From the NCBI GenBank assembly GCA_019752595.1, contig JAIELV010000001.1:1-54485 (forward strand): a DNA stretch of 54,485 bases. Reading direction: 5' to 3'. The position numbers and the translations under genes are program-made. Numbering within the stretch: position 1 is the first letter of the stretch; each line of letters starts with the position of its first letter. The stretch comes from Patescibacteria group bacterium. Lineage in GTDB: Bacteria > Patescibacteriota > Minisyncoccia > Phycocordibacterales > Phycocordibacteraceae. This document shows, in pieces, positions 1-53,792 of the stretch. A model generated the notes under the pieces. The model was not told the origin of the DNA. It ran no database searches and saw only the letters and a program-made list of their open reading frames with translations.

Positions 1-3000
1 GGAGGACTTGCGATTGATGCACTGGGGAATGTCTATAATGCAGCGACTTCGACGTTGGCAACTATTGCAGGGACTCTTAATCTCGCCACACAAGTGACAG
101 GGGATTTGCTGTTCTCGAATCTCACGCAAATCGCCCCAAATTCAATTCTCGGAAACATTTCAGGCAGTACTGGAGATGTGGGAGCGATTGCCACATCTTC
201 ACTCTTTACTGGTTCAAACGGACAAACACTTGCCAGAGTGAACGGTACCTGGATGGGAGTTGCAACTACGACGGCAGGCACTGGGCTGACGTATGACGGA
301 ACAAGCTTCAACGCAAACTGTGTTGCAATTACAGGTTCCGCATCGTTGTGCGACGGAGATGATGCGACAGGAGGGGGCGGAAGCTGGCCGTTTGTAACTT
401 CCGTAACAAACTTTGGAACTTCAACACAATCTACATCAACACCGCTGTGGCTCAGAGGAAACAAGTACTCACTATTCGCTTCCTCGACTTCCGTTTTTGA
501 GTTTGCCTCAACAACGCAATTTACTTCAACAGGTATCACGTACCTCGCAACGGGAGGAGGGATGGTTGGTATCGCAACCAGCACTCCGCTTTCCTCTGCC
601 AAACTCGATCTCTTCGGTAATTTTACCTTCTCTGGTGCAGACAGGTATCTGAATTTCGGTGCAACCTCTACCGATTCGGTCGGTGTGAACGGGTATGGCT
701 TCCGTGATAATGCAGGCACATTGGAGTTCAAGAACTCCGGAGGCACCTGGCAGGGAGTGACGACGGCAACATCCGGGCCGAGTTTTAGCGTGCATCGGAA
801 TAATGTTTCTACCACGAGCGTTGATGGAGCAATAGTTGGTATAGATTGGACCACAGAAAGTTTTGACACGAACAATAATTTTGACCTTTCTTCTGATCGC
901 TTTACTCCTACCGTACCTGGCAAATATGTGGTCAGTGCAAGTGTTAGATGTAACAACTCGGCCGCTGACACCTGTCAGATTTATATTTATAAGAACGGTT
1001 CAGGGGGTGTGCTTATTGCGAGCCAGACAAGTGAAGTCCCCAACGCAACGCAAGGTGCGAGCGTCTCAACGATTGTTGATATGAACGGTACGACTGATTA
1101 TGTAGATGCGTATGTGCGCGTTATTGGTGACACAAATATATCTGGTGCTATCGGCTTTACGATTTTTTCAGGTGCCATGGTCGCTCCGGTAAATTCAAAC
1201 AACGCCGCCGGGTGGACGAATGACGGTTTCGCTTCCTATCTCCTGGATAATGCGGACAACGTGGGCGTCGGCACTTCTTCGCCGTTTGCAAAATTCGCGA
1301 TACAAGGAAATGCGGGTCAAACGAATCCCGTGTTTGAAATTGCTTCGTCTTCAACAGGAACAAAGTTCATATCGGTTGCAGGTAGTTCAGGGATTGTGAC
1401 AATGACGAACGCTTCAACCACCAACATCACATCAGCATACGCATCAACCACTAGTCAGATAATCTCAGGCTCTCTCACACTCGCCAATCTCTCTGGCTTC
1501 CTCAAAGCAACCGCAGGTGTTGTGGCAACCTCACTCATTGATCTCGCAAACGATGTGACCGGCATCCTTGGTGCTACGAACGGCGGCACGGGATGGGCAA
1601 ACTTGCAGGCAAACACTCTTCTCTTAGGAAACGGTACCAACAGAATCAGTACCACCACTGCAGGTACGAACGGGCAGGTACTTGCGTTGGTATCAGGAGT
1701 ACCGACGTGGGTTGCGACAACAACACTCGCTGATATTTCAGGAACTCTTACTGTAAATAAAGGAGGTACTGGCGCAACCACATTTACAAACAACAGACTC
1801 CTCACAGGAAACGGCACATCCGCACTTGTTGATGAAACAAATCTCACCTTTGACGGTTCTCTTCTTGCGGTGACAGGTAATGCGTCAACGACGCAACTCA
1901 CCACAACTGACTCAACATACTTGGCGACATTGGGAGGAAATGTGGGTATCGGAACAACGAGTCCTTACAAAGCACTTTCTGTTCAAGGAGGGGTTTCTAC
2001 GGATTTAGTTGTTCTCTCTACAACAAATACAAGTGGCGCTTCAGTTCGTTTTGATGGTAACGGTACGTATGACGGCAGAGCGTGGAGAATATCTGCAGGA
2101 GGAAGTGCAAACACGATATTCGGAACCAGCCCCGGAACAAAATTTGGCATCATTGACGCAACAGCAAACGCTTCTCGGTTGACGATAGATTCATCAGGTA
2201 GAACGGGTGTTGGTACTACATCTCCGTTCGCTCGTCTTACTGTGTGGGGCGGTGCATCGGAAATTAATCTTTTGGAGGTTGTAAATTCCGCATCCACAAC
2301 AGCGCTCCGCGTATCGGCTTCGGGTTTTGGTACCACCACACTTTCTGGCCTCGCTGTTTCAGGATCTGCAACCTCGACTTCAAATGTAGGTATCGATTTA
2401 TCAAGTGGGTGTTTTGCGATTAACGGTACCTGTGTCGGTGGCAGTTCATTTTCAAACACCATTGCTAACGGAGGAACGGCAACGACGACGTTTTATAACG
2501 GAGGAGTTGTTTTCTACAACTCTACACTCGGCACACTTTCACAAGCGTCAGCTCAGACAGGTCTTTTTTATAACAACACCACATCACGGCTCGGTATCGG
2601 CACCACAACCCCGAACGCGATGCTCGCCATCAGCACGAGCGGGGGCGAGGGACTGTATTTGGATAACCCAAGCGGACAATTTTCGATTATGCGCTATTTG
2701 AATAATGGCGGTATAAAAGCAAGCACGTATTGGGACAATACAGCAAGCAAGCTTGAAAACGCGATTTCAAGCACAGGAAACTTTACCTGGGTTTCAAATG
2801 GAAACGAATGGATGCGTATCGGCACGACAGGCAACGTCGGCATCGGCACAACGACGCCCTTTGCAAAATTCGATGTATATGCGGCGGACGTGAACGGCAT
2901 ACGAAGCATATCAACCGTTACACTTGGCTCTACGTCTGGGGGAGGATTTTTTGCACAAAACAATGCATCTTCTACTGCGGCAGATCAGCGGCTCGGGGGT

Positions 3001-5013
3001 CTCTTTTTCGGAACAAACATTGACGGAACAAGTTATTCATCTGCAGGAATCACTGGTTTCTCGAGCGAAGCGTGGAGTGCGACTGCACGCGGGGCACACT
3101 TGCGTTTTGAGACAGCGGGATTAGGTGTTAGTTCTCGTACGGAACGTATGCGAATAACTGCTGACGGAAATGTCGGTATTGGGACAAGCACTCCCGCATT
3201 CAAATTGCAGATAGCATCCGATTATGTGAACACTGGGGATATCAGCTCAGGTCAGTTTTCGGTAACGGGCGCAACCGACCCGACAAAACGAATCGCTCTC
3301 GGGTATGACACGACAAATAATTATGGATTTTTGAAGGCAGGTCGTGTGGGGATAGGTTGGGATAACATTTCCATTGCTCCGTTTGGGGGCAATGTGGGCG
3401 TCGGCACCACGTCGCCATGGGGACTTCTTTCAATAAATCCAAACGCGCTCGGCGCCAGCGTGCCTTCATTTGTTGTCGGTTCTTCAACTGCAACCAGCCT
3501 TATCGTGACAAACGCGGGTAACGTTGGCATCGGGCAGTTAGCACCAACGCATCGTCTGAACGTTCGTTCTCAGGCTTCAGCAACCAATGTGTTTGTGGTG
3601 AGCGGTGCAACAAGCAACGGTACGTTGGCACGCATCTACGATGATTCAGGCGTGGGCATTCTTTCCGTGTATGCCACCAGTGAAAACGAAACAATCCGTC
3701 TTTATGGCAACGGCAGTAGTTACTTAAACGGCGGCAATGTCGGTATTGGAACGACCTCTCCCGCCTACAAGCTCGATATTGCAGGAAATGTTGGGATGAG
3801 TGCGGGCGCGGGAAGTTCCGCGGCTATTTATCTCCAGGCGCGCAATATCGGGAATATGACACAGTTCGGAACCGAGGCATCTACAGGGAACTCTATTTTG
3901 TCTGGTGGCACCGCGTATGCGTCGATCTTTGGTTCTAACGGCGCATTTCCAGTGCAGTTTGGCACTTCAAATACTGTGCGCTTGACCATCGATTCTGCAG
4001 GTAATGTAGGTATAGGCACTTCAACTCCAGGATTTTTACTCTCTACGTCGGGTGGGAAGGTCGCCTTTAAATCAACCGCGTCTACTACTGCAGCGTTTGC
4101 TGTTGAAAATAACTACGGAAGAAACGTGTTTCAAGTCGATACGCGCGACACTGCGGCTGCTCTCTTTTCTGTATCTACGTCAACAGGGGGTACGTACTTT
4201 ACGATTGCGGCGGCGGGTAACACGGGGGTTGGAACCACAACGCCGTTTAAAGTATTTTCGGTTTCAGGCTCGGGCGCTTGGGACGGTCTCACGGCACTTT
4301 CAGGTACCTCTGGTACGCTGTGTTGGAACACTACAACAAGGGAAATTTTGTCCTCAACAGCTACCTCGTGTAACACCTCTTCGGCGCGTTTTAAAAACAG
4401 TATTGAATCTTTGGGTTCCAGTTCGGGTCTTGCAGAAATTATGAATCTGCGGCCAGTCTCGTTCAAATATAATAACGACGAAAATCCGGATACTACGTAC
4501 ACAGGTTTTATCGCTGAAGAAATCTTTGCTGTTGACCCACGCCTAGTAGTATTTGATCAGGATGGGCTTCCGTACAGCGTCAGATACGAAAACTTAACTG
4601 CTGTATTGGCTCTTGGCATACAGGAGTTGAATCTGAACATCAATACAATCGCGTCTTCCACCGCAAGCACAACTCCCGCTTCACTGAATTTTGCTGAATC
4701 GTTCTTCTCGAATGTGTTTACAAAAATAACGACGTGGCTTGCGGATGCAACAAACGGAATAGGGAAGTTGTTTGCAAACGAAATTCATACGAAACAGATT
4801 TGCGTCGCAAAATCTGACGGTACGGAATTCTGTGCGGATGGCGACACATTGGCGGCGCTTGCTGCATCTGCTGGGGGCCCTCCAACTCCGCCACCGACCC
4901 CTCCGCCAACACCTGAACCCACTCCCGAGCCAGAGCCTGAACCCGAACCAACTCCAGAGCCCGAACCGACGCCAGAATCTGCGCCCGAAGAAACGCCTTC
5001 GCCTACACCCTAA
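1..5013 (+). CDS. Giant tail-fibre-like surface protein, 5'-partial. Contains a C1q/TNF-like module, GNVGIGTTSP-type repeats, a Peptidase_S74 intramolecular-chaperone domain and a Pro/Thr/Glu tail.
   Basis: Frame 1 is open from nt 1; the track M at 55 is a TTG, so the gene very likely continues upstream. The C-terminal region SSARFKNSIESL...LRPVSFKYN...GFIAEEIFAVDP...YENLTAVLALGIQELN matches the endosialidase/tail-fibre chaperone (S74) pattern. Residues around SFSVHRNN...GKYVVSASV...IYKNGS...FSGAMV resemble a C1q/TNF jelly-roll. Confidence 0.85.
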   Translation, partial: GGLAIDALGNVYNAATSTLATIAGTLNLATQVTGDLLFSNLTQIAPNSILGNISGSTGDVGAIATSSLFTGSNGQTLARVNGTWMGVATTTAGTGLTYDGTSFNANCVAITGSASLCDGDDATGGGGSWPFVTSVTNFGTSTQSTSTPLWLRGNKYSLFASSTSVFEFASTTQFTSTGITYLATGGGMVGIATSTPLSSAKLDLFGNFTFSGADRYLNFGATSTDSVGVNGYGFRDNAGTLEFKNSGGTWQGVTTATSGPSFSVHRNNVSTTSVDGAIVGIDWTTESFDTNNNFDLSSDRFTPTVPGKYVVSASVRCNNSAADTCQIYIYKNGSGGVLIASQTSEVPNATQGASVSTIVDMNGTTDYVDAYVRVIGDTNISGAIGFTIFSGAMVAPVNSNNAAGWTNDGFASYLLDNADNVGVGTSSPFAKFAIQGNAGQTNPVFEIASSSTGTKFISVAGSSGIVTMTNASTTNITSAYASTTSQIISGSLTLANLSGFLKATAGVVATSLIDLANDVTGILGATNGGTGWANLQANTLLLGNGTNRISTTTAGTNGQVLALVSGVPTWVATTTLADISGTLTVNKGGTGATTFTNNRLLTGNGTSALVDETNLTFDGSLLAVTGNASTTQLTTTDSTYLATLGGNVGIGTTSPYKALSVQGGVSTDLVVLSTTNTSGASVRFDGNGTYDGRAWRISAGGSANTIFGTSPGTKFGIIDATANASRLTIDSSGRTGVGTTSPFARLTVWGGASEINLLEVVNSASTTALRVSASGFGTTTLSGLAVSGSATSTSNVGIDLSSGCFAINGTCVGGSSFSNTIANGGTATTTFYNGGVVFYNSTLGTLSQASAQTGLFYNNTTSRLGIGTTTPNAMLAISTSGGEGLYLDNPSGQFSIMRYLNNGGIKASTYWDNTASKLENAISSTGNFTWVSNGNEWMRIGTTGNVGIGTTTPFAKFDVYAADVNGIRSISTVTLGSTSGGGFFAQNNASSTAADQRLGGLFFGTNIDGTSYSSAGITGFSSEAWSATARGAHLRFETAGLGVSSRTERMRITADGNVGIGTSTPAFKLQIASDYVNTGDISSGQFSVTGATDPTKRIALGYDTTNNYGFLKAGRVGIGWDNISIAPFGGNVGVGTTSPWGLLSINPNALGASVPSFVVGSSTATSLIVTNAGNVGIGQLAPTHRLNVRSQASATNVFVVSGATSNGTLARIYDDSGVGILSVYATSENETIRLYGNGSSYLNGGNVGIGTTSPAYKLDIAGNVGMSAGAGSSAAIYLQARNIGNMTQFGTEASTGNSILSGGTAYASIFGSNGAFPVQFGTSNTVRLTIDSAGNVGIGTSTPGFLLSTSGGKVAFKSTASTTAAFAVENNYGRNVFQVDTRDTAAALFSVSTSTGGTYFTIAAAGNTGVGTTTPFKVFSVSGSGAWDGLTALSGTSGTLCWNTTTREILSSTATSCNTSSARFKNSIESLGSSSGLAEIMNLRPVSFKYNNDENPDTTYTGFIAEEIFAVDPRLVVFDQDGLPYSVRYENLTAVLALGIQELNLNINTIASSTASTTPASLNFAESFFSNVFTKITTWLADATNGIGKLFANEIHTKQICVAKSDGTEFCADGDTLAALAASAGGPPTPPPTPPPTPEPTPEPEPEPEPTPEPEPTPESAPEETPSPTP
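1255..4250 (+). repeat. Dispersed in-frame repeats encoding G-N-V-G-I/V-G-T-T-S/T-P followed by an amphipathic strand. I read at least 11 copies.
   Basis: Copies seen near nt 1258, 1939, 2200, 2587, 2829, 3166, 3389, 3518, 3733, 4001 and 4216, for example ggcaatgtcggtattggaacgacctctccc. Confidence 0.8.
4876..5010 (+). repeat. Low-complexity Pro/Thr/Glu tail (PPTPPPTPPPTPEPTPEPEPEPEPTPEPEPTPE...)
   Basis: Read directly from the translation and from the cc[a/g]-ac[a/c]-cc / gaa-cc[a/c/g] repeats in the DNA. Confidence 0.9.
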
Positions 5014-7757: not shown

Positions 7758-8240
7758 ATGCGAGTAATATTTGCAGCCGACCACGGGGGATTCGCTCTCA
7801 AAGAAGTCTTAAAACCTTTTGTCGCTTCATTAGGATATGAAGTAGAGGATGTGGGCGCGTACACACTCGATATGACGGATGATTACCCGCCTATTATTCA
7901 GGCAGGGGCGAGAAAAGTGGCGGAAGATTTAAAAAATAATCGCGGAATTATTATCGGTGGCTCGGGACAAGGCGAAGCATTTGCGGCAAACCGGATAAAA
8001 GGAATTCGTGCCGTTGTGTACTATGGTGAGCCGAAACGTCCCCAGATAGACGCAGACGGAAGAGCGCTCGATATGATTTCATCAACACGTGAACATAATG
8101 ATTCAAACATACTCTCGCTTGCGGGCAGGTTTCTTTCTGAAGAGGAAGCGAAAGATGCAGTGAAGCGCTGGCTTGAAGCAACATACGAGCCAAGCTCGAG
8201 GCATGAAAAGCGACACAAACTTGTAGACGAAGGCGCATGA
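7758..8240 (+). CDS. rpiB: Ribose-5-phosphate isomerase B (RpiB/LacAB family)
   Basis: MRVIFAADHGGFALKE start and a GGSGQGEAFAANR segment (the Glu-type active-site region seen in actinobacterial RpiB). HNDSNILSLAGR is also present. Confidence 0.85.
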   Translation: MRVIFAADHGGFALKEVLKPFVASLGYEVEDVGAYTLDMTDDYPPIIQAGARKVAEDLKNNRGIIIGGSGQGEAFAANRIKGIRAVVYYGEPKRPQIDADGRALDMISSTREHNDSNILSLAGRFLSEEEAKDAVKRWLEATYEPSSRHEKRHKLVDEGA

Positions 8241-8908
8241 TAGAAGTCATTCCGTCACTCCCTGCGCTTACTTTTGAAGAACTTCGTACGAAAGTTGGGA
8301 TGGTGACAGGTTTGGTGTCTACGTTTCAGATTGATATCTGTGATGGCATGTTTACCCCGCAACGTTCGTGGCCAATGAATCCTGGCGACAAACCTCAATT
8401 TACAGATATTGTGCGCGGAAAAGAAAAACTTCCAAATGCTGGCCAGATTGATTTTGAAGTTCACTTCATGACGCATACGCCAGAAAAACTAATACCTGAT
8501 TGGCTAAAGGCAGGAGCGATGCGTTTTTTGGTGCATGTTGAAGCGCGGCACGATTTCGCGGCATGCCGGAGAGCAGCAGGAGACGGAGAGCTCGGGGTTT
8601 CACTCAATATAGGTACGGATGTTGCGCGCATCGCTGATTACGCCCCCTACATATCGGTCGTTCAACTTATGGGGATTGCAAAAATCGGCGCGCAAGGACA
8701 ACCATTTGACCCGCGCGTTTTAGATATGATTTCAGAAGTAAAGCAGAGGTACCCGAATGTTATAATTGAAGTCGACGGGTCGGTAAATATGGAAACGGCG
8801 CCGTTGCTGGTTAAAGCAGGCGCTACGCGCCTTGCTCCAGGGTCATACGTTTTTCGTTCAGAAAATCCAAAAGCCGCGATTGACGCTTTGAAATCAATTT
8901 CCACATGA
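8237..8908 (+). CDS. rpe: Ribulose-phosphate 3-epimerase family protein (divergent)
   Basis: IDICDGMFTP, EVHFMTHTP and VDGSVN segments match the Rpe TIM-barrel pattern. ATGA overlap with rpiB, and pentose-phosphate genomic context. Confidence 0.7.
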   Translation: MIEVIPSLPALTFEELRTKVGMVTGLVSTFQIDICDGMFTPQRSWPMNPGDKPQFTDIVRGKEKLPNAGQIDFEVHFMTHTPEKLIPDWLKAGAMRFLVHVEARHDFAACRRAAGDGELGVSLNIGTDVARIADYAPYISVVQLMGIAKIGAQGQPFDPRVLDMISEVKQRYPNVIIEVDGSVNMETAPLLVKAGATRLAPGSYVFRSENPKAAIDALKSIST

Positions 8909-9744
8909 GTCACATTACAGAAAAAGAAATTCAGGCACTTGAAGAAAAAGCGCGCGAGGCGCGCATTACTACTATCCGCTCCTTAGTTCAGGCAAAGTCT
9001 GGACACACAGGAGGTTCACTCGGCATGGCGGATATTTTTACTGCGCTCTATTTTCATATTGCAAAGCATGACCCTAAAAATCCTGATTGGGTTGAGCGAG
9101 ATTACATCGTTCTTTCAAACGGACACATCACTCCAATTCGCTATGCCGTCATGGCGCATGCGGGGTATTTTCCTGTTGAGGAGTGTTTGACGCTTCGAAA
9201 GCTTGGTAGTCGTTTGCAGGGGCACCCTGAACGCGACATGCTCCCAGGTGTTGAAACGACATCTGGCCCGTTAGGAAGTGGTACATCGCAAGCGGCGGGT
9301 ATGGCATATGCACTCAGAATGGATAAAAAACCAAACCGCGTGTATTGCTTGACCTCGGACGGTGAACAGCAAGAAGGAAACACGTGGGAGGGGGTGATGT
9401 TTGCAGGTAAACACAAACTTTCCAATCTCGTTGTATTTATGGATAGAAACTACATCCAGATTGAAGGTTCGACTGAGGATGTGATGCCATTGGAGCCATT
9501 GGCAGATAAATATCGAGCATTCAACTGGCACGTGATTGAAATAGACGGGCACAACATGGAGGCAATCGTCGACGCATGCGAACAAGCGAAAGCAATTAAA
9601 TCAAAACCGACTTTGATACTTGCCAATACGATTATGGGGAAGGGTGTGAAAGAAATAGAAGGAAACTACAAGTGGCACGGTACGGCACCAAAACCCGAAC
9701 AGGAAGAATCGTTTATAAAGCAAATCCGCGAAGCGGCAAAATAG
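8905..9744 (+). CDS. Transketolase, N-terminal (TPP pyrophosphate-binding) subunit
   Basis: SGHTGGSLGMADIFTALYF, GHP....GVETTSGPLGSG and DGEQQEGNTWE. The 279-aa size fits a split tkt. Confidence 0.92.
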   Translation: MSHITEKEIQALEEKAREARITTIRSLVQAKSGHTGGSLGMADIFTALYFHIAKHDPKNPDWVERDYIVLSNGHITPIRYAVMAHAGYFPVEECLTLRKLGSRLQGHPERDMLPGVETTSGPLGSGTSQAAGMAYALRMDKKPNRVYCLTSDGEQQEGNTWEGVMFAGKHKLSNLVVFMDRNYIQIEGSTEDVMPLEPLADKYRAFNWHVIEIDGHNMEAIVDACEQAKAIKSKPTLILANTIMGKGVKEIEGNYKWHGTAPKPEQEESFIKQIREAAK

Positions 9745-9745
9745 T

Positions 9746-10300
9746 ATGATTTTCGGAATTGCTCTTATCGCTTTTGCCGCCTTTCTTGCTTACAAAGAGA
9801 AATTCGAGATAATCCCCGGGACCGTTATTTCAGGTGCCTCACTTAAAGTGTTCGCCCTCGCTGAAGCTGTGGCGGGTTTTTATTTTATCTATCCGGGCTT
9901 TTTCCCTTTACCACAAACTGCAGAAGTTGGTTTGGCGGTACTCGTTTTTGTGAATCTTTGCGCCGCTGCCGCGATGTATTTTTCCAATACAGACGTACGA
10001 GAAAACCCACCACAGAATTACACCCCGTTTTTTTTAAGGAAATCTTTCCATATCAGTCTTCTTGAAAACGGAGCAATTACCGCAAGCGTAATGTGCGCAC
10101 TCGTAGGTTCGTTCTTTGTAATGGTAGTTCAAGGTCCGACAACTGAATGGAAGTATCTCATGCTCGGTCTTGCGGTTCTTTACGTTGTTGGAATTTTCGT
10201 AGTGGCGAAAAAAATAGCAAAAAGACAATCGTATATCCAATCTGCAGTCGTACTGGTTTTTGCTCTATTACCAGCCTGTCTATTTTTCGCTTTCACTTAA
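9746..10300 (+). CDS. Polytopic membrane protein, hypothetical
   Basis: About 5-6 hydrophobic helices and no recognised family. It lies between the two transketolase halves with 1-nt and 6-nt spacers. Confidence 0.6.
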   Translation: MIFGIALIAFAAFLAYKEKFEIIPGTVISGASLKVFALAEAVAGFYFIYPGFFPLPQTAEVGLAVLVFVNLCAAAAMYFSNTDVRENPPQNYTPFFLRKSFHISLLENGAITASVMCALVGSFFVMVVQGPTTEWKYLMLGLAVLYVVGIFVVAKKIAKRQSYIQSAVVLVFALLPACLFFAFT

Positions 10301-46295: not shown

Positions 46296-47390
46296 TTATG
46301 GAAGTGAAACAATCGTGTACTTGATGATGTTGTTCTCATCATTCTTTTCCTGAATGCTTCCTGTAGGATCGACATTCACGGTGAACTGAGCATTTGAGTT
46401 GATGTCAAAGCTGTCGAAGCCGATAGTGAATTCAATACGGTCTTTTGGACGCAATTCCTGCTGCATCGGAGACGAGTAGATGTACGAGGGAAGAGTAGGA
46501 AGAACCGCGTTAAAGGCGAACTGATTTGAGGTCTTGGTACCCTGGTTTTCGACAGAGAAACGAACTGCAATTCTCTGTGTGCGTGATGGTGTTGAGGATG
46601 CAGTGAATGCGCCTGTTGATTTATCAACGACACCGACTTCGATAATTTTCGGCACGAGGTCGACATAGCCGTTCGGGTTTGAGACAGGTGCACCTGAGCC
46701 AGGAATAGTGATTGTGGTGTTTGTCGGAGCTCCTGGTGTCGTAGGAGTTGTTGGCGTAGAAGGTGTGGTCGGTGTCGTAGGAGTGGTTGGGGTCGTCGGC
46801 GTCGTTGGCGTAGAAGGAGTGGTTGGTGTGCCAACGGTTGGACTTGAGCCAAGAGCAGGATTCGTCAACGTCAACGTTGCCTTTCCAGTCACTGTTGGCT
46901 GGTTCGCGCCGTTCGGAGTGAAGTCTATGTACACCGTGACGTCTGCAAAGCGGTTCGTGTCAGAAAATCCTGTGAGCGTGATTGAGTTGTTGCTGTGTAC
47001 AAAGTTAAACGGCACGTTGCAGAAAATAGTATCCTGCGCATTTGCCGAATTGAGGGCTGTCATGCGTACACCGTCTGCACAATCAAAGCGGAAGCGGTAC
47101 GAACCTTCAACTGTTTTCTTATCGTGCGCCCATGAGAGAACAAATGCTTTGTTGTGTTCGATATTCAAAGAGGGAACAGACAGTGCGATCGCTTCATCTG
47201 CAGGAACGAAAATAGAGGTAAGCGAAACGATTGCTGATGCAAGGTTAGAGAGTGCTCCTGGTACCGCGCGGGCTACCTGAACTGAACCCCACATACCAAT
47301 CCCGAGGATTGCGATAAAACCGATAATAGCGGCAACGCGCTGAACGCCTCCCGACATGAGGCCGCGCTTAGAATTCGGTGTGTTTTCCAT
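46296..47390 (-). CDS. Membrane-anchored surface protein with a Pro-Thr linker and a C-terminal CARDB-like domain
   Basis: TM helix VAAIIGFIAILGIGMW. PT repeat. The CARDB pattern runs DLVPKI...FSVENQGTKTS...VNVDPTGSIQEKNDENN. I prefer Met13 of the track ORF (about 47390): it follows a minus-strand TTGACA-N17-TACTGT by 7 nt. The track's TTG at 47426 lies within that -35 box. Confidence 0.7.
   Translation of the reverse strand: MENTPNSKRGLMSGGVQRVAAIIGFIAILGIGMWGSVQVARAVPGALSNLASAIVSLTSIFVPADEAIALSVPSLNIEHNKAFVLSWAHDKKTVEGSYRFRFDCADGVRMTALNSANAQDTIFCNVPFNFVHSNNSITLTGFSDTNRFADVTVYIDFTPNGANQPTVTGKATLTLTNPALGSSPTVGTPTTPSTPTTPTTPTTPTTPTTPSTPTTPTTPGAPTNTTITIPGSGAPVSNPNGYVDLVPKIIEVGVVDKSTGAFTASSTPSRTQRIAVRFSVENQGTKTSNQFAFNAVLPTLPSYIYSSPMQQELRPKDRIEFTIGFDSFDINSNAQFTVNVDPTGSIQEKNDENNIIKYTIVSLP
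46729..46833 (-). repeat. Tandem Pro-Thr coding repeat (PTTPSTPTTPTTPTTPTTPTTPSTPTTPTTP)
   Basis: Reiterated ggtgtcgtaggagtKgttgg-type units on the plus strand. Confidence 0.85.
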
Positions 47391-47572
47391 GTGTCGGACA
47401 GTATCATGGATATAAGGACTTGTCAAGCATGCGCTTTACTCCTGCCTTTTTCAGGGTGTAATCCAAATCCTTGACAAAGTGTCTTCTATGATGTAAGCTA
47501 TTTAATAGAAACTGTCTGGAATAAATCCACCTGTGGAGCTACTCCTCAGTTTCGGACAGTTAGTTCATCACT

Positions 47573-48253
47573 ATGAAAGGTGGAAATCACATACCAGAAG
47601 ATATACAGCACATAGCTCAAAAGCCGTGGGAGTTTCTCGCGGTTTTTCTCGCGACGTTCTTTGTTTTCTCAACAGTTCTCTTTGCTCTGGATTTTTATCC
47701 TGAAGCTCCGAAGACTGTTGCAGAAGCTGCAAAGACTGAGTCTGTTGTAGAACAAACTGTTTCGGAACCGAAAGTCGCAGGAGCAAGTGTTTCTACAGGA
47801 GCAGTTCTTCCTGTCGGGAGCCCTGTCCGCATTCGCATTCCTTCTGTCGGCATAGATACGCCGATACAGAATCCGAGTTCGACGGACATCACGGTACTCG
47901 ATAACGCGCTTTTAAAAGGAGCGGTCCGTTATCCAGGAAGTGCACTCCCAGGACAAGACTCACGCATGTTTATCTTCGGTCACCAAAGTGGTTTGCCGGT
48001 TGTAAAAAATCAGGCCTTCAAGGCCTTCAACAATCTGCAGAATGTGAAAGTTGGCACTGAAATTGAAGTCTACTCGGATACGGCTGTGTATCGGTACCGA
48101 GTTATTTCAATCGAACATGCATCGGTTAATGACGGTTGGGTAGATTTGAGCGGTAACGACAGAATGCTCATTCTCTCAACGTGTGATAGTTTCGGCAAAA
48201 AGACAGACCGAAACATCGTCAGAGCAGAATTTGTATCACAGGAATTACTTTAA
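47573..48253 (+). CDS. Sortase-family transpeptidase
   Basis: N-terminal TM anchor, FIFGHQSG (His), MLILSTCDS (TLxTC-type Cys) and NIVRAEF (Arg). Confidence 0.85.
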   Translation: MKGGNHIPEDIQHIAQKPWEFLAVFLATFFVFSTVLFALDFYPEAPKTVAEAAKTESVVEQTVSEPKVAGASVSTGAVLPVGSPVRIRIPSVGIDTPIQNPSSTDITVLDNALLKGAVRYPGSALPGQDSRMFIFGHQSGLPVVKNQAFKAFNNLQNVKVGTEIEVYSDTAVYRYRVISIEHASVNDGWVDLSGNDRMLILSTCDSFGKKTDRNIVRAEFVSQELL

Positions 48254-48285
48254 AAAATTAGAAAATTAGAAAATTAAAAAACAGT

Positions 48286-49791
48286 ATGGCTGACCGCTCA
48301 AAAGACAGACTTTTCAGAGCAAGACATTTGGGACGAGCATTCGTCGCTGTTTTGGGTGCAACTGCTCCCGCGGCGCTTACGGCCCCTGCGTTTGCGCAAG
48401 ACGCAGCTCCAGTGCGTCCGCTGAGGACTATTGGGGAGCATCCGTTTGCAAACTCAATGACAGAAGCATTGAGCGACGCTCACCTGAGACGTGTTTTTGC
48501 TACTGCTGTTGCAGAGGGCACACTGACAGAAGCTGATCGTGCGGCATTTTTGGCTATGGCTATTGCTCAGCGCACGACCATCGGAGACGTGCAACTTGTT
48601 CAGCCAGGTGCAGAATTTGAATGGATGATGGATCAAAATGATCCAGCAGCGGGTGCTGGTCCCGAGCGTTTGAGATGGGCAGGCACTCAGCCTTTCCGCG
48701 CTCGCGTCATGACGATGACTCGCTCAGACAGAGCAACCGTGAGGTTCGGTGTTGTCATGGACACGATTGACGGGCGCCCATGCTATAACTTTTTTCCTGA
48801 GTCAGTTACGCCTGCTGTCGGAACACCACCTCCGCCACCTCCTCCTCCGAATCCTATAACAGCACCCAGATCTCCTGCGCAATGGTATTTGCAAGAAGGA
48901 GTTGTAGCTGCCGATTGTTGCCAAACACGTGTCGTGAACGGTCTTTTGATTGCAGAATACCGCGGTACTGTTGAAGAGGCACAGAGATATTTTGCTGCAA
49001 ATCTTCGTCGTCCTGGTAACGGAGTGCAAACACTTCGCCCAGGAGACTATCAGGAAGGATTAAATCAACCGTTTGCATACCTTGTAGTTAGAGATCCGAG
49101 CACAGGGCAGGAAACATTCTGGTGCATGGAGCTCAACAATTCTGGAAGATTTTCTCGTCCTGTTGTAGTAACAGGTGGAGGTAGAGGGGAGCCTTCGAGG
49201 AGAACTGAAGTAAGAACGAGAGCGCAGTTTGACGCTTTGGTTACGGGAACTTTGGAATTCAATGAAAATTTTTCTTTGACTGGATCAGGACGTGGTGCTG
49301 ATATCAGCGTTGTAAGTATTACTGAGCCAACTCCGCTGACGGTTGTTGACGCAGATAGAAACGGAGTAGGAGAAGGATTTGCGGTAAATACAAGAACACG
49401 CAGAGCTGCGCTTGAAAGCCAGATGTCGCTTATCGCACGCACGGTCTTTCCAGTGAGTACAGAGCCTGCAGTGAATGAACGCGCGGATAGATTGTGGGCA
49501 CAGATTGCAGCTACATCAATTCCTGAAGCATTTATCACGGGACGCACAGAAGGAGCGCGCATTTCCGCTCTCCGTACGGCGTTCCCTGAACTTACTGCGG
49601 TTGAAGCACGTCAGTTGGCTTCATTCCTTCACTACTACGGTGGCGTTGATCGAGGAGCTGAACGAGGTGACCAGTTTGTTGCCGAATACAGAACTGGTGG
49701 CGTTCCTCGAACAGTAGGAGGATTCTTTAATGCAGGCGTGGGAGCAGAAGTAACTGCAGGCGTCTACCCAGGAGTGCGTTCAGGTCAGTAA
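48286..49791 (+). CDS. Secreted Arg-rich hypothetical protein with essentially no lysine
   Basis: Signal peptide ...AVLGATAPAALTAPAFA|QD. A P8 tract. About 50 Arg against a single Lys, at residue 6. No family recognised. Confidence 0.7.
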   Translation: MADRSKDRLFRARHLGRAFVAVLGATAPAALTAPAFAQDAAPVRPLRTIGEHPFANSMTEALSDAHLRRVFATAVAEGTLTEADRAAFLAMAIAQRTTIGDVQLVQPGAEFEWMMDQNDPAAGAGPERLRWAGTQPFRARVMTMTRSDRATVRFGVVMDTIDGRPCYNFFPESVTPAVGTPPPPPPPPNPITAPRSPAQWYLQEGVVAADCCQTRVVNGLLIAEYRGTVEEAQRYFAANLRRPGNGVQTLRPGDYQEGLNQPFAYLVVRDPSTGQETFWCMELNNSGRFSRPVVVTGGGRGEPSRRTEVRTRAQFDALVTGTLEFNENFSLTGSGRGADISVVSITEPTPLTVVDADRNGVGEGFAVNTRTRRAALESQMSLIARTVFPVSTEPAVNERADRLWAQIAATSIPEAFITGRTEGARISALRTAFPELTAVEARQLASFLHYYGGVDRGAERGDQFVAEYRTGGVPRTVGGFFNAGVGAEVTAGVYPGVRSGQ

Positions 49792-49792
49792 A

Positions 49793-49820
49793 TTGACAAA
49801 ACATTAAATTAATGTATACT
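49793..49820 (+). promoter_or_regulatory. Near-consensus sigma70-type promoter for the giant adhesin gene
   Basis: TTGACA (49793-49798), a 16-nt spacer, then TG-TATACT (49813-49820). The track ATG at 49812 lies inside the -10 region. Confidence 0.7.
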
Positions 49821-49835
49821 GAAAATAAGAAAAAT

Positions 49836-52800
49836 ATGTCACTCCTACTCGGCAAAAAACACACGATTTTGAGAAACTTCTTTGTATTCGCGGTGCTTTT
49901 TGTCGTGCTGTTTATCGGTGCATGGCTCGCACTCGACGAAGCGAGTATCGCTTTTTCTCCAGAGGCAATAATTGCAGAAGCATCTGCAGGTTGTGGTGGT
50001 TGTTTTAATGATTTTCCTCTCCGCAACACTCACATTGATGGAGGTGGCGGAGGTGGCGGAGGTGGCGGAGGTGGCTATACACCGACGCCGTACTGCACCA
50101 TTACCGCAAGCCCGAACCCTTCAACTGGTCCTGGTGAACCAGTGTATCTAACGTGGACGACATATCTTGCAACATCTGCAACAATTAGTTCTGGTGTGGG
50201 TTCCGTCAATCCCGTCCTAGGTGGCACTGTCACTGTATATCCCTCAGTCAATACCACGTATACGATGACGACCCAGCACGGAACGTATGGTTCCGCTACT
50301 TGTCAGGTTGTTGTACAGATTCCCCCTCCACAGTTGGGCTGTATTGAGGTTTTGAAGGAAACCTATGACACGAACGGCAATATTTTGAACCCAGTGGCTC
50401 AGTTCACCTTCAAGCTCGACGGAGTAACAACTGCAGTGAATGATGCCAATGGGTATGCAATTTTCAATAACGTTTCTCCAGGCCTTCATACAGTCTCAGA
50501 AATTCTTCCACCAACGTGGCAGCTTCTTTCAATCACTCCAGTCAATGGTTTGGTGTACGTAAGTCCAGGTCCTATTTGTGCGGCAGTCGTATTCAAAAAC
50601 AAACAGGTTATTGAAACGCCTCCGCCAACCTGTACGCTTGCAATAACACCTTCGGTGATTGATGCTGGCGACGCTGTTTCAATAGCGTGGGCAACGACGA
50701 ACGCTACTCAGATTTCCATAGACGAAGATGTGGATGGCCCTATGGTTCCGATTTCGGGAGGTACGGTAACGGCACATCCGACACAAACCATAACGTATCA
50801 CTTCCATGCAATAAACGAGGTTGGGCAGGCGAACTGTCAGCAAACGGTTACGGTGCGACCACCGACGAATAACTCATGCCCAGTTCCTTCTTCTTTGAGT
50901 GACAATACTACCAACGCGATTAATTCCGCGCCTGGTACTGAAAAAGATCTTCAGGAAATTCTTGACGACAACACGCCCTACAATCTACAAGTATTCACCA
51001 ACCAGAAGCAGTACCAGAACTGGACTGTCACTTCGGGCTCACACATCAAGATAACGGCTACGCATGTGAATCACTACACAGCCCTGAGACAAGTCTTCGG
51101 GTTCTACAGAAATGGTGATATTTCGACATTTACTCCAATCTACAAAACGGCAGCTATCCCAGGTCAGGAGTCAGTTCCGCTCTCATCCACTGGTCCTTTT
51201 GTCATTACTCCGAATGTCGGTGGCACTATTGCCTTCGCTATCAAGAGCTATCAGGCAAACGGAAGTCTGTACGGCGTGAAGGCGAGCGAAAACGCACTGA
51301 ATCAGAACGGACGTGACCAAATGGTCGCTTACAATCCGTCTGCGAATAAATACGTACTCGCGTTTGAAGACGTTATTGAGGGCGACGACGATTTTAACGA
51401 TCTCGTTGTTGACCTCACGCTCGACTGTGTAGACCCTGTTGTTAAAGGTTGTATTGAAATCAAGAAAGAAACCTACAACACGAACAACGTACAGATTTTC
51501 CCTGTCGCACAGTTTACGTTCAACTTGGACGGTAATGCGCAGACGACACAGAACGATGCTTCAGGTAACGCGGTCTTTAACGATGTATCCGTTGGTCTTC
51601 ACACGGTTTCTGAAATTGTGCCTCCAACATGGACTCAACTTTCAGTAACTCCAGTCAACGGGTTGGTGTATGTTGCTCCAGGCCCTATCTGTGCAGCAGT
51701 TGTTTTCAAGAACAAACAGACTATTACCACACCTCCTCCAGTGACGGTTTCCGTAACGAAAATCGTTTGCGATTCTGAAGCGGATCTTCCAAATCGTTCA
51801 GGTGGAGCAAACATCACCGCAACAACCGCAGCTGACTTCTTGGCAACTCATCCGAACTGCCGTTTACAGCCGAACTGGGTCTTTGAGTGGGCGAATGCAA
51901 GCGTAGGAAATCCTGGCGACAATACAGGTGCGGGTGGCGCAGGATGGAATACACTCGCTCCGACAAATGCAAACGGCACCACGACGATTGCTATTCCTGT
52001 TTCAGCAATTACAGGCAGCCAGATTTGGGTGCGTGAACAGATGCAGAGCGGTTTCGTTCCGTTCACAGGAGTTTCAGGCGGAAATGTATCTGCAGAAATG
52101 TACTGTTCAACAGATGTGTTGAATTATGACAACTTGGATGCAATCGCGAGCCCAACGTCAGGGTCTACCTATCACTGTGTTGCATGGAATGCACATACTC
52201 CTCCAAACCAGCCAACGTGCGTTGTGAATGCATCACTCACTTCAGGAAATAATTATTCGCTCACGTGGTCAACTACAAACGCAACCTCTTTCACTATTAA
52301 CCAGGGAATTGGCTCAGTGACTCCAGTTGCGGGTGGTTCAGTGTCCGTGACTGCAACGACGACCACAACATACATTGGTACTGCAACAGGCCCTGGGGGC
52401 ACGTTTAACTGCCCAACAACTGTCACGATTACGCCGAACGTTATCACTCCTGTATGCTCGCTCTCTTTAAGCGTGTCCTCAGGTCAGATTCGAACAGGTG
52501 AGAGTATCAAACTTTCTTGGACATCATCAAATGTGACGAGCGGTTTCATCACGAATTACGGCACTACGACTCCCGTTTCAGGAGGTACATCTGAAGATTT
52601 GTTCCCGTCGACTGACACTACCTACTCAGGTACGTTCGTTGGTCCGCACGGCACGACAACTTGCTCCACGAATGTTCGCGTCACTACGGGTGGTTGCCAA
52701 GGTAACTGTGGTGGAGGTATGAATCCTCCAAACGTGGTGATGTATTCAAAACCAGGTGACACGCCATTGGTCGCATCCGTCTTTCTTTCACAAATTCCGT

Positions 52801-53792
52801 ACACTGGCTTTGAAGCAGGCCCAGCATTGACCGCAATCTTCTGGCTTGCTGTGGTGCTTCTTGCAGGATTGGTTGCGTACTTCGCTCTCGGTAGACGTGG
52901 AATTATGAATATGTTCTCGGGTCACATTGCCGCAGTTGCAGGAGTGCCTACTGAATCTGATATACGTCACACACTAGAGGAGCGCGGAGAAATTGTTCCT
53001 GAGGTACACAACGCGCCTGTGGTTGCGTCAGTTGCAACACCAGTGCCAGTGTTTACTCCCGTGGCACTTCCAATTACATCTCAGGCAATTGTTACTGCAC
53101 CTATAGTTGCCCCTGCAGTTTCAGCTGAAGCAGGAATTCCTGATCTTGCCGATGTGATTGAATCACGAGCACATGCTGCAGGCGTTCTGATGTCGCCTGA
53201 AGCAGTACAAGGTGCAGTTGCACTCGCTTCAGATCGTGCTGATGTCCTCAAAGTATTCGGCACTATCTTGAATGACGCAGTCCGCACGCTTCCTCGCGAA
53301 GATGGATGGATTATGCTGACGTCGGATCGTTTGGAAACTTTGGCAGGAAACATCGCTCCGAAAGTCGCTGAAAAAACAATTGTTTCGACTGTTGTTCCGA
53401 CATATACGATTGCATCAGCAAAAACAGCAGCGCCTGTTGAGACGGTTTCCGTCCAGGGAGTTGATGAAGCTGTGGCGGTTCAATTCGTGACGTCGATTGT
53501 TTCTGGGAATCGTGAACTCGCGTTCTCAATCATCCGCTCAATGGAACATGACCGTGTAAACCCGACGACATTGATGACTTCAGCCGCAACTGTCCTTGAC
53601 CGCCTCTACCGCGTACGTCAGGGAGGCAAAAACGGTATTGATAGCGCACTCGTCGATGCATCACAGCATATGACTGACGAGAATGTGCATAAGCTTGTTG
53701 AAGTCTTCACACATTCACTCGATACCGTATACGCAAATCCGTTCACGGGCGTAAAGCTCGCGCTCGCTCAGGCGTTTGAGATTATCGGCTAA
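49836..53792 (+). CDS. Giant surface adhesin. Order of parts: N-terminal TM, Gly12, Ig-like modules, two SpaA/prealbumin-like modules, DUF4114, an internal IPYTG-TM-GRR signal, then a ~296-aa C-terminal domain.
   Basis: Start set at Met9 of the track ORF. AFEDVIEGDDDFNDLVVDL matches the DUF4114 signature. CIEVLKETYD...VVFKNKQ is duplicated. LSQIPYTGFEAGPALTAIFWLAVVLLAGLVAYFALGRRG lies at residues about 992-1030 of the track ORF. Confidence 0.85.
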   Translation: MSLLLGKKHTILRNFFVFAVLFVVLFIGAWLALDEASIAFSPEAIIAEASAGCGGCFNDFPLRNTHIDGGGGGGGGGGGGYTPTPYCTITASPNPSTGPGEPVYLTWTTYLATSATISSGVGSVNPVLGGTVTVYPSVNTTYTMTTQHGTYGSATCQVVVQIPPPQLGCIEVLKETYDTNGNILNPVAQFTFKLDGVTTAVNDANGYAIFNNVSPGLHTVSEILPPTWQLLSITPVNGLVYVSPGPICAAVVFKNKQVIETPPPTCTLAITPSVIDAGDAVSIAWATTNATQISIDEDVDGPMVPISGGTVTAHPTQTITYHFHAINEVGQANCQQTVTVRPPTNNSCPVPSSLSDNTTNAINSAPGTEKDLQEILDDNTPYNLQVFTNQKQYQNWTVTSGSHIKITATHVNHYTALRQVFGFYRNGDISTFTPIYKTAAIPGQESVPLSSTGPFVITPNVGGTIAFAIKSYQANGSLYGVKASENALNQNGRDQMVAYNPSANKYVLAFEDVIEGDDDFNDLVVDLTLDCVDPVVKGCIEIKKETYNTNNVQIFPVAQFTFNLDGNAQTTQNDASGNAVFNDVSVGLHTVSEIVPPTWTQLSVTPVNGLVYVAPGPICAAVVFKNKQTITTPPPVTVSVTKIVCDSEADLPNRSGGANITATTAADFLATHPNCRLQPNWVFEWANASVGNPGDNTGAGGAGWNTLAPTNANGTTTIAIPVSAITGSQIWVREQMQSGFVPFTGVSGGNVSAEMYCSTDVLNYDNLDAIASPTSGSTYHCVAWNAHTPPNQPTCVVNASLTSGNNYSLTWSTTNATSFTINQGIGSVTPVAGGSVSVTATTTTTYIGTATGPGGTFNCPTTVTITPNVITPVCSLSLSVSSGQIRTGESIKLSWTSSNVTSGFITNYGTTTPVSGGTSEDLFPSTDTTYSGTFVGPHGTTTCSTNVRVTTGGCQGNCGGGMNPPNVVMYSKPGDTPLVASVFLSQIPYTGFEAGPALTAIFWLAVVLLAGLVAYFALGRRGIMNMFSGHIAAVAGVPTESDIRHTLEERGEIVPEVHNAPVVASVATPVPVFTPVALPITSQAIVTAPIVAPAVSAEAGIPDLADVIESRAHAAGVLMSPEAVQGAVALASDRADVLKVFGTILNDAVRTLPREDGWIMLTSDRLETLAGNIAPKVAEKTIVSTVVPTYTIASAKTAAPVETVSVQGVDEAVAVQFVTSIVSGNRELAFSIIRSMEHDRVNPTTLMTSAATVLDRLYRVRQGGKNGIDSALVDASQHMTDENVHKLVEVFTHSLDTVYANPFTGVKLALAQAFEIIG
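50040..50075 (+). repeat. Perfect 4x GGAGGTGGC tandem repeat encoding Gly12
   Basis: gga ggt ggc appears four times in frame, read directly. Confidence 0.95.
50334..50628 (+). repeat. Internal duplication, copy 1 (prealbumin/SpaA-like module)
   Basis: GCIEVLKETYDTNGNILNPVAQFTFKLDG...LHTVSEILPPTW..TPVNGLVYVSPGPICAAVVFKNKQ. Confidence 0.8.
51441..51740 (+). repeat. Internal duplication, copy 2
   Basis: GCIEIKKETYNTNNVQIFPVAQFTFNLDG...LHTVSEIVPPTW..TPVNGLVYVAPGPICAAVVFKNKQ. By eye, most positions are identical to copy 1. Confidence 0.8.

Follow-up and report, generated by a model that had tools for sequence, protein, structure and literature searches.

We analysed a contig of 54,485 nucleotides from a Patescibacteria group bacterium (assembly GCA_019752595.1, contig JAIELV010000001.1, positions 1 to 54,485 of the forward strand; hereafter the window) and focused on one gene at 48286..49791 on its plus strand. 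We found that the product, a genuine protein with a predicted signal peptide for export, carries no lysine (Lys, K) in its exported chain. Its family, an orphan one and very rare, sits in a sortase-adhesin cassette of Paceibacteria and comprises short forms, such as the window protein, and long forms. The exported chain of most lineages is purged of Lys while about 10% basic residues stay as arginine (Arg, R), and the purge follows the predicted membrane topology, whichever domain is exported. These patterns support sustained selection against Lys itself in the exported chain of the family protein, in most but not all lineages. The gene and its signal peptide are located as follows (the arrow marks the predicted cut).

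48286..49791, plus strand: gene of the exported protein purged of Lys, a short ('S-type') form of the orphan family, recognised from its open reading frame (ORF), composition and homologues.

48286..48396, plus strand: predicted signal peptide, residues 1-37, holding the only Lys (K6); predicted cut AFA↓Q, which would leave Gln as the mature N-terminus (from sequence, hydropathy and the pattern AxA↓Q in 5/5 short forms).

The translated ORF is 501 amino acids (aa) long; 51 of them are Arg and only one, residue 6, is Lys. With the predicted cleavage, the mature chain has 464 aa, 0 Lys and 46 Arg, and its net charge is about –4. An initial annotation of this sequence had counted one Lys at residue 6 and about 50 Arg and had called the mature chain Lys-free, and our counts agree. 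Residues 7-501 are without Lys, which makes the protein a lysine desert, that is, Lys-less over at least 150 aa or at least 50% of its length. The N-terminus, MADRSKDRLFRARHLGR-AFVAVLGATAPAALTAPAFA↓QD, is arranged like a Sec signal peptide, with a basic n-region, an Ala-rich and weakly hydrophobic h-region (Kyte-Doolittle 1.6) and the AFA↓Q site. The AxA↓Q pattern is found in all five short forms, the window protein included, and the position of their signal peptide aligns with the last transmembrane (TM) helix of the long forms.

The other 47 ORFs of the window (at least 100 aa) contain 1.1–11.6% Lys. Its seven other exported or surface proteins have, when pooled, 98 Lys and 137 Arg, which gives a probability of ∼2e–11 for 0 Lys among 46 basic residues. 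K/(K+R) is ∼0.25–0.54 in the other secreted proteins of the window, somewhat under that of cytoplasmic proteins and far from 0; a similar Arg-over-Lys skew across secreted proteins, sought within the window, was not seen. We also ranked Lys content over 940 ORFs that do not overlap and reach at least 200 aa, taken from the window and 97 related Paceibacteria loci (∼1.4 Mb). Only one of the 940 has a Lys fraction below that of the window protein, and it is apparently a spurious alternative-frame ORF; our gene is the lowest credible one in this distribution, and three of its homologues are among the 30 lowest-Lys ORFs. The flanking genes had been described as normal in their use of Lys. This is true of the sortase (4.9% Lys) but not of the adhesin, which is Lys-poor (2.3%), though with K and R about equal (30/26): it has few charges overall and is not Arg-skewed.

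The Arg codons of the gene are 19 AGA, 3 AGG, 12 CGT, 13 CGC, 4 CGA and 0 CGG. AGA and AGG (AGR) make up 43% of them, versus 21% in 36 other window genes (binomial test, P-value = 3e–4), in keeping with the abundance of these codons pointed out earlier. CGA is not raised, hence the AGA excess is not merely the gene's overall drift to A/T-ending codons. The gene is also not strikingly GC-rich, as the initial annotation had it: its GC content is 0.516 (∼0.47 for the window), with GC1/GC2/GC3 of 0.63/0.55/0.37. GC3 lies under the window's typical 0.40–0.50, hence the gene is not GC-rich at silent sites. In the window and in loci L001, L003 and L004, GC3 of the family gene is below that of its neighbours (0.35–0.46 versus 0.41–0.70), with both GC1 and GC2 high; its GC3 is about that of the neighbours in L002 and the long-form loci. 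In the window, L001, L003 and L004 the family gene (819-2405 in L001, 8001-9143 in L003) shows an overall tilt to A/T-ending codons (GGA, GCT, CCT).

A word-indexed search found a full-length homologue, P0002, which is 39–43% identical to the window protein (P0001 in family comparisons) and shares conserved W/C/F/Y motifs. An exhaustive HMMER search with the profile of these two sequences defined a family of 11 proteins or clusters among 1.84 billion cluster representatives. Three further loci of the P0003 clade, two with complete genes, came from a scan of JGI metagenomes; the family sample used here is 13 sequences. No member was found in GTDB scanned with family patterns. A GyrB-anchored GTDB scan gave 80 related loci, 34 of them with a clear sortase match, mostly downstream of gyrB, and none of the 80 holds a family member. 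Word-indexed searches with full-family and N-domain alignments returned nothing new, probably because of poly-Pro words and the use of fragments. Overall, no homologue outside the Paceibacteria cassette was found among the 1.84 billion representatives, GTDB and the JGI metagenomes. Two signal-peptide proteins encoded after the sortase in Kaiserbacteria-like loci (L028 13678-14610 and L026 13895-14830) have an xFGxxPYAxSxxEA start, resembling the motif of the family, and normal Lys (5–7%). As possible, very distant N-domain relatives they were set aside (hhalign probability 37% and 3%).

Within the P0003 clade dN/dS is 0.13–0.18, which indicates that the family proteins are real and under purifying selection; together with conservation, this rules out a spurious ORF. 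GyrB of the window shares 68–75% identity with its counterparts from Paceibacterota, Kaiserbacteria and further metagenome-assembled genomes of Parcubacteria type in GTDB, and this placement in the candidate phyla radiation (CPR)/Patescibacteria is consistent with a putative episymbiont. The short forms (window protein, P0002, P0005, P0007 and P0011) have a signal peptide, and their gene follows that of the sortase. In the long forms (P0003, P0004, P0006, P0008, P0009, P0010, L094 and L096) the gene precedes the sortase and encodes an N-terminal extension of ∼300 residues, in which there are two or three hydrophobic segments and loops rich in Lys and Arg; these TM helices would anchor the protein in the producer's own membrane. 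In the short-form subclade of P0005, P0007 and P0011, domains 2 and 3 are swapped for an unrelated Cys-rich C-terminal domain. The numbers of Lys and Arg in the exported parts (K/R) divide the family as follows.

Extreme depletion: window protein 0/46; P0002 4/45; P0005 1/31; P0007 1/30; P0011 1/25; P0006 1/32.

Moderate depletion: P0009 6/23; P0003 9/39; L094 8/39; L096 11/37.

Ordinary: P0004 26/23; P0010 35/22; P0008 18/22.

Thus 10 of the 13 members are Lys-depleted, with K/(K+R), in the order above, of 0.00, 0.08, 0.03, 0.03, 0.04, 0.03, 0.21, 0.19, 0.17 and 0.23; six of them are at 0.08 or less, and three members are ordinary. The initial annotation had proposed conservation of the depletion in orthologues as a check and had named ordinary Lys content among them as evidence against its proposal. 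Conservation extends to the ten depleted members and breaks down in P0004, P0010 and P0008. Lys avoidance is therefore lineage-variable and not a fixed family property.

The long forms allow a comparison within single proteins. By predicted topology, P0006 has 19 Lys and 23 Arg inside versus 1 Lys and 32 Arg outside (Fisher test, P-value = 4e–5), and the same contrast is found in P0003 (P-value = 0.004). Lys is equally absent from the non-homologous C-terminal domains that P0005, P0007 and P0011 carry. The sortases, adhesins and CARDB proteins of the same loci have about as many Lys as Arg, hence the pressure is specific to the family protein. P0003 and P0004 are sisters (53% identity) with 9 versus 26 exported Lys. 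Between them there are 10 K-to-R versus 2 R-to-K differences, and about half are single-step AAR/AGR pairs. The window protein and P0002 have only 16 Arg positions in common (of 46 in P0001). At ∼30 positions on either side Arg is present in one protein only, and Lys takes these positions nowhere in P0001 and four times in all in P0002.

Six long forms share a conserved A-x-A↓A-E-[LAM] motif ∼60–90 residues past the last TM helix, preceded by FG[VSI]K in 4/6, which could be a processing site. In P0006 Lys stops at this motif, with K262 and K271 before it and only K419 after. The sites are:

L087, gene 1435-3942: aa 340.

L005, gene 8001-10049: aa 273.

L097: aa 287.

L090: aa 316.

L094: aa 299.

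L096: aa 300.

For the window protein, AlphaFold2 (AF2) gave a poor model with 2 sequences (pLDDT 43) and a usable one of moderate confidence with 11 sequences (pLDDT 72). Together with the alignments, it outlines three domains.

48412..48810, plus strand: Domain 1, alpha/beta, aa 43-175, common to all family members (AF2 model with 11 sequences, pLDDT 80–89; alignments); it has a conserved G-x-x-PFA-x-S-x-x-EA motif at aa 50-57 and an invariant C166.

48826..48849, plus strand: poly-proline linker PPPPPPPP, aa 181-188 (pLDDT < 50; homologues have a Pro-rich linker at the same place).

48880..49245, plus strand: Domain 2, beta-beta-alpha-beta4, aa 199-320 (AF2 model, alignments), with conserved motifs DCC (210-212), DYQEG (254-258) and FWCME (278-282).

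49348..49365, plus strand: DxDxNG loop DADRNG, aa 355-360, a putative Ca-binding loop judged by its motif in alignments.

49399..49755, plus strand: Domain 3, helical bundle, aa 372-490 (AF2 model, core pLDDT 83–95).

P0002–P0004 carry a second, DxDxDG-type loop with a perfect 12-residue EF-hand pattern (e.g. DLDNDGAIEANE), EF-hand/dockerin-like, which is deleted in the window protein; no dockerin or EF-hand Pfam match was found for family proteins at E ≤ 0.1. Such loops and the conserved Cys of the homologues are probably those of extracellular proteins, for which they are typical. That no known family could be recognised was confirmed: Pfam, NCBIfam and PDB (phmmer and profiles) gave no match for any member of this orphan family of 13, and Foldseek found none with E < 0.08 for the whole-chain model against PDB and BFVD. 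Hot-dog and Atg7-NTD matches had a Foldseek probability of at most 0.15 and were disregarded. Pfam, NCBIfam, PDB and Foldseek likewise revealed no catalytic or toxin domain and no delivery moiety in the window protein, which for a novel fold is absence of evidence. The protein has no [LIVA]PxT[GAN] motif and no C-terminal hydrophobic segment; lacking both an LPXTG-like motif and such a segment, it was rejected as a sortase substrate. A sortase-assembled pilin was dismissed given the Lys-free mature chain and the non-conserved positions of the residual Lys of homologues, and a thioester-domain (TED) or isopeptide adhesin given that no TED, CnaB or SpaA profile of Pfam matches.

The cassette was found at every family member whose contig could be read. 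Its order is purD, gyrB, the CARDB gene (on the opposite strand), the family gene and the sortase gene in either order, the large adhesin gene, a small ORF, thrS and dnaE. The sortase adjoins the family gene in 12 of the 13 loci; the contig of L098 (P0008) ends before sortase and adhesin. In the window, the components are:

46296..47426, minus strand: CARDB-domain surface protein (Pfam PF07705), divergent, with a Pro/Thr repeat (PTT/PST)n; left border of the cassette.

47573..48253, plus strand: sortase, 226 aa, N-terminal TM anchor, 4.9% Lys (Pfam PF04203, E = 8e–21).

49812..53792, plus strand: large adhesin, 1326 aa (1318 from the second ATG), with SpaA (PF17802)/prealbumin-like and DUF4114 domains (Pfam).

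50040..50075, plus strand: poly-Gly run of 12 G, adhesin aa 77-88, behind an N-proximal CxxC motif; similarly placed runs in 10/10 loci.

52794..52808 (region to ∼52920), plus strand: IPYTG sortase-type sorting motif, adhesin aa 995-999, a presumed site of sortase cleavage, followed by a TM helix, GRRG and a ∼290-aa tail; in 10/10 loci.

The window sortase reaches the cut-off of the NCBIfam sortase_fam model, and no class-specific model reaches its own. The family gene begins 32 nt past the sortase stop and ends 20 nt ahead of the 1326-aa adhesin gene. The 32-nt spacer (48253-48285) is nearly all A/T, with tandem TTAGAAAA x2 and no obvious Shine-Dalgarno sequence. A near-consensus sigma-70-like promoter, TTGACA-16-TATACT (11/12 matches), at 49793-49820 overlaps the first ATG of the adhesin ORF. 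Translation of the adhesin may truly begin at the ATG at 49836, and the product would then have the 1318 aa stated in the initial annotation. A CARDB protein stands at the same position in 41 related loci.

As a conserved partner, the adhesin gene accompanies the family gene in 10 loci. SQIPYTGF[EDA]AGP, a TM helix and a basic G[RK]xG are present in 10/10 adhesins (window, L001, L002, L003, L005, L087, L090, L094, L096 and L097); the peptide ...LSQIPYTGFEAG... represents this sorting signal. Classical cell-wall sorting signals are C-terminal, whereas this one is internal, with a conserved and presumably cytoplasmic tail of ∼290–330 aa after the TM helix. The poly-Gly run has 6–13 G in 10/10 loci, always with D or R just before it. 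An oligo-Gly N-terminus is the classical sortase nucleophile. A cut at the poly-Gly run would expose such an N-terminus, hence head-to-tail sortase-linked adhesin fibres are possible.

Several causes of the depletion other than selection against Lys can be set aside. The loci of the family range from 43 to 58% GC, with no relation to Lys state, which excludes base composition: the exported part has 1 Lys and 35 Arg in the most AT-rich locus (L005, 43% GC) versus 26 Lys and 23 Arg in L090 (46.5% GC). The initial annotation favoured gene-specific selection over import from a high-GC donor, and our data bear this out, given the lack of homologues outside the cassette, the depletion at 43% GC, the turnover of Arg positions and the low GC3. 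One could still argue that a high-GC donor or ancestor left a GARP-rich, Lys-poor protein of which only silent sites were ameliorated. Indeed, A+R+G+P make up 40% of the window protein versus ∼26% for the host, I, N and K are low, and two relatives reside in loci of 55–58% GC. However, such a legacy should have been erased at 25–40% identity with turnover of basic positions, where Lys has not come in; moreover, F+Y+M+I+N fall only to ∼0.76 of the host level but Lys to ∼0.04, and Lys is at ordinary levels in the cytoplasmic portions of these ORFs. We regard it as very improbable. Even less credible, to the point of being negligible, is a constraint on mRNA or translation, with AAA/AAG avoided to keep synthesis of the protein going during a shortage of lysyl-tRNA or an attack on it. 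It would explain 1.39 kb without Lys codons, but there is a Lys at codon 6, in the signal peptide, and 19–26 Lys codons lie upstream in the cytoplasmic N-parts of long-form ORFs; the depletion boundary coincides with membrane topology, not with the transcript. The ordinary Lys content of the cytoplasmic N-part of P0006 and P0003 thus excludes tRNA- or codon-level causes, and this contrast within one ORF refutes the constraint. A general A-to-G mutational bias is at odds with the normal levels of E, D, Q and N in the window protein. A requirement of one fold is excluded by the Lys-free state of unrelated C-terminal domains and by the K-normal members, whose shared domains tolerate Lys. A general extracellular hazard or secretome-wide skew, compared within the window and the loci, is contradicted by the sortase, adhesin and CARDB proteins, and polycation binding by the net charge of about –4.

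As to the driver, Lys and Arg differ mainly in the reactive primary amine of the former. An N-terminal Gln can cyclise to pyroglutamate, and the thioacyl intermediate of a sortase is resolved by an amine. Our leading reading, to which we give only tentative credence, is that the family protein is an amine-free accessory factor of the sortase-adhesin module, beyond capture by an acyl-enzyme. Judging by gene context, it would be an accessory or partner component of this surface module. The Lys purge, together with conversion of the mature N-terminal Gln to pyroglutamate, would leave the chain free of primary amines. It could then not act as a nucleophile for envelope acyl-enzymes, above all for the thioacyl intermediate of the adjacent sortase with the adhesin, and might stay at the assembly site without covalent cross-linking and without ending adhesin attachment. 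The sortase is the one invariant neighbour, which suggests such an amine-free bystander. A class A sortase variant is known to acylate its own Lys side chains and those of bystander surface proteins (PMC10818881). Several points weigh against this reading. P0004, P0010 and P0008 have ordinary exported Lys despite the same kind of sortase and adhesin neighbours (the contig of L098/P0008 ends earlier), hence a nearby sortase is not in itself enough to bring about the purge. Lys is present in both the sortase ectodomain and the adhesin, and we know of no Lys-free accessory protein in the sortase or pilus operons of Gram-positive bacteria. Since the fold matches nothing known, the assigned role is read from gene context, and the interaction, expression and pyroglutamate of the family protein are likewise presumed.

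In the main rival reading, the exported chain might meet or enter a host or competitor, with Lys lost, depending on host or habitat, to escape tagging (Pup, ubiquitin-like) or Lys-specific proteases. Such an external, lineage-specific driver fits better with the variation of Lys state among lineages that have the same sortase and adhesin (9 exported Lys in P0003, 26 in P0004), and depletion is strongest in the short forms, which would be freely secreted (5/5). Lys-directed evasion also has precedents in pupylating Actinobacteria and their phages (PMC10665810) and in toxin A chains (PMC4030972, PMC6471375). However, nothing indicates translocation into a host, Pfam, NCBIfam and Foldseek revealed neither a toxin nor an enzyme domain, and the long forms are predicted to be anchored in the producer membrane; for these reasons the effector entering a host cell, as envisaged by the initial annotation, is not upheld. 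A general extracellular Lys-specific protease should have affected the other surface proteins of the same cell, which are unpurged, and 10% Arg leaves the chain open to trypsin-like cleavage. We consider evasion of host attack unlikely, and less likely again that Arg is favoured for structure or binding (guanidinium hydrogen bonds, salt bridges, phosphate or sulfate recognition), with the loss of Lys as a by-product. A preference for Arg would agree with ∼10% basic residues in the family versus ∼4–5% K+R in other exported proteins of the window. Yet Arg positions are poorly conserved (16/46 in common with a 43%-identical homologue), unrelated fused domains are purged as well, the net charge is about –4 and the K-normal members show that the fold tolerates Lys. 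Going further, the cassette might be a new sortase-driven assembly, in which the IPYTG-cut adhesin is joined through an amine, perhaps that of an oligo-Gly N-terminus set free at the poly-Gly run, into head-to-tail fibres, with a Lys-free, pyroglutamate-capped protein as dedicated assembly factor or cap and the purge as the footprint of a promiscuous acyl-enzyme; or it might hold the first CPR host-contact protein shaped by a Lys-directed defence of the host. We offer this as a long shot.

CPR/Patescibacteria live attached to other microbes, and to our knowledge almost nothing is known of their interface proteins outside type IV pili. New here is an orphan family with an unmatched fold in a previously undescribed, conserved sortase cassette of Paceibacteria. 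It bears an unusually clean mark of selection: Lys is lost only outside the cell, repeatedly, across GC backgrounds and with relatives that differ. This mark is indicative of covalent chemistry directed at Lys, on the cell surface or at the host interface, be it that of the own sortase or of a host defence.

Gram-positive sortase and pilus operons encode non-substrate accessory proteins, e.g. signal-peptidase-like chaperones. Like these, the window protein is predicted to be exported, has no sorting signal and is encoded between sortase and adhesin; unlike them, it shows no sequence or fold similarity, and the adhesin has an internal IPYTG with a long, presumably cytoplasmic tail. The acylation of Lys by sortase A (PMC10818881) parallels the hazard proposed for the window protein, as the epsilon-amines of bystander Lys resolve the sortase acyl-enzyme. 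However, that enzyme is an engineered streptococcal one, studied in vitro and on cells, whereas the CPR sortase is known here from sequence. An Arg-over-Lys bias is also described for the A chains of AB toxins that translocate from the endoplasmic reticulum (ricin A, cholera toxin A1, Shiga toxin A1; PMC4030972, PMC6471375). Common to both is an exported protein with strong replacement of Lys by Arg that is thought to be adaptive. The toxins, however, combine a catalytic domain with a B moiety and are documented to reach the eukaryotic cytosol; none of these features is detectable in the window protein, and its long-form relatives are predicted to be membrane-anchored in the producer.

The closest parallel in extent is with lysine deserts, reported under the length limits given above from pupylating Actinobacteria, their phages and components of the eukaryotic ubiquitin-proteasome system (PMC10665810). 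As in these, the window protein has a long Lys-free stretch, 464 aa or 93% of its length, that retains Arg, and both are read as avoiding a Lys-directed modification. The deserts of that study are cytosolic, occur in organisms with Pup or ubiquitin and are confounded by high GC in Actinobacteria. In contrast, the stretch described here would be extracellular, comes from a CPR bacterium of ∼47% GC whose relatives' cytoplasmic parts are Lys-normal, and implicates no tagging system. Overall, our analysis widens the idea of the lysine desert from cytosolic proteins exposed to Pup or ubiquitin to an extracytoplasmic bacterial protein, for which the GC confounder can be excluded.

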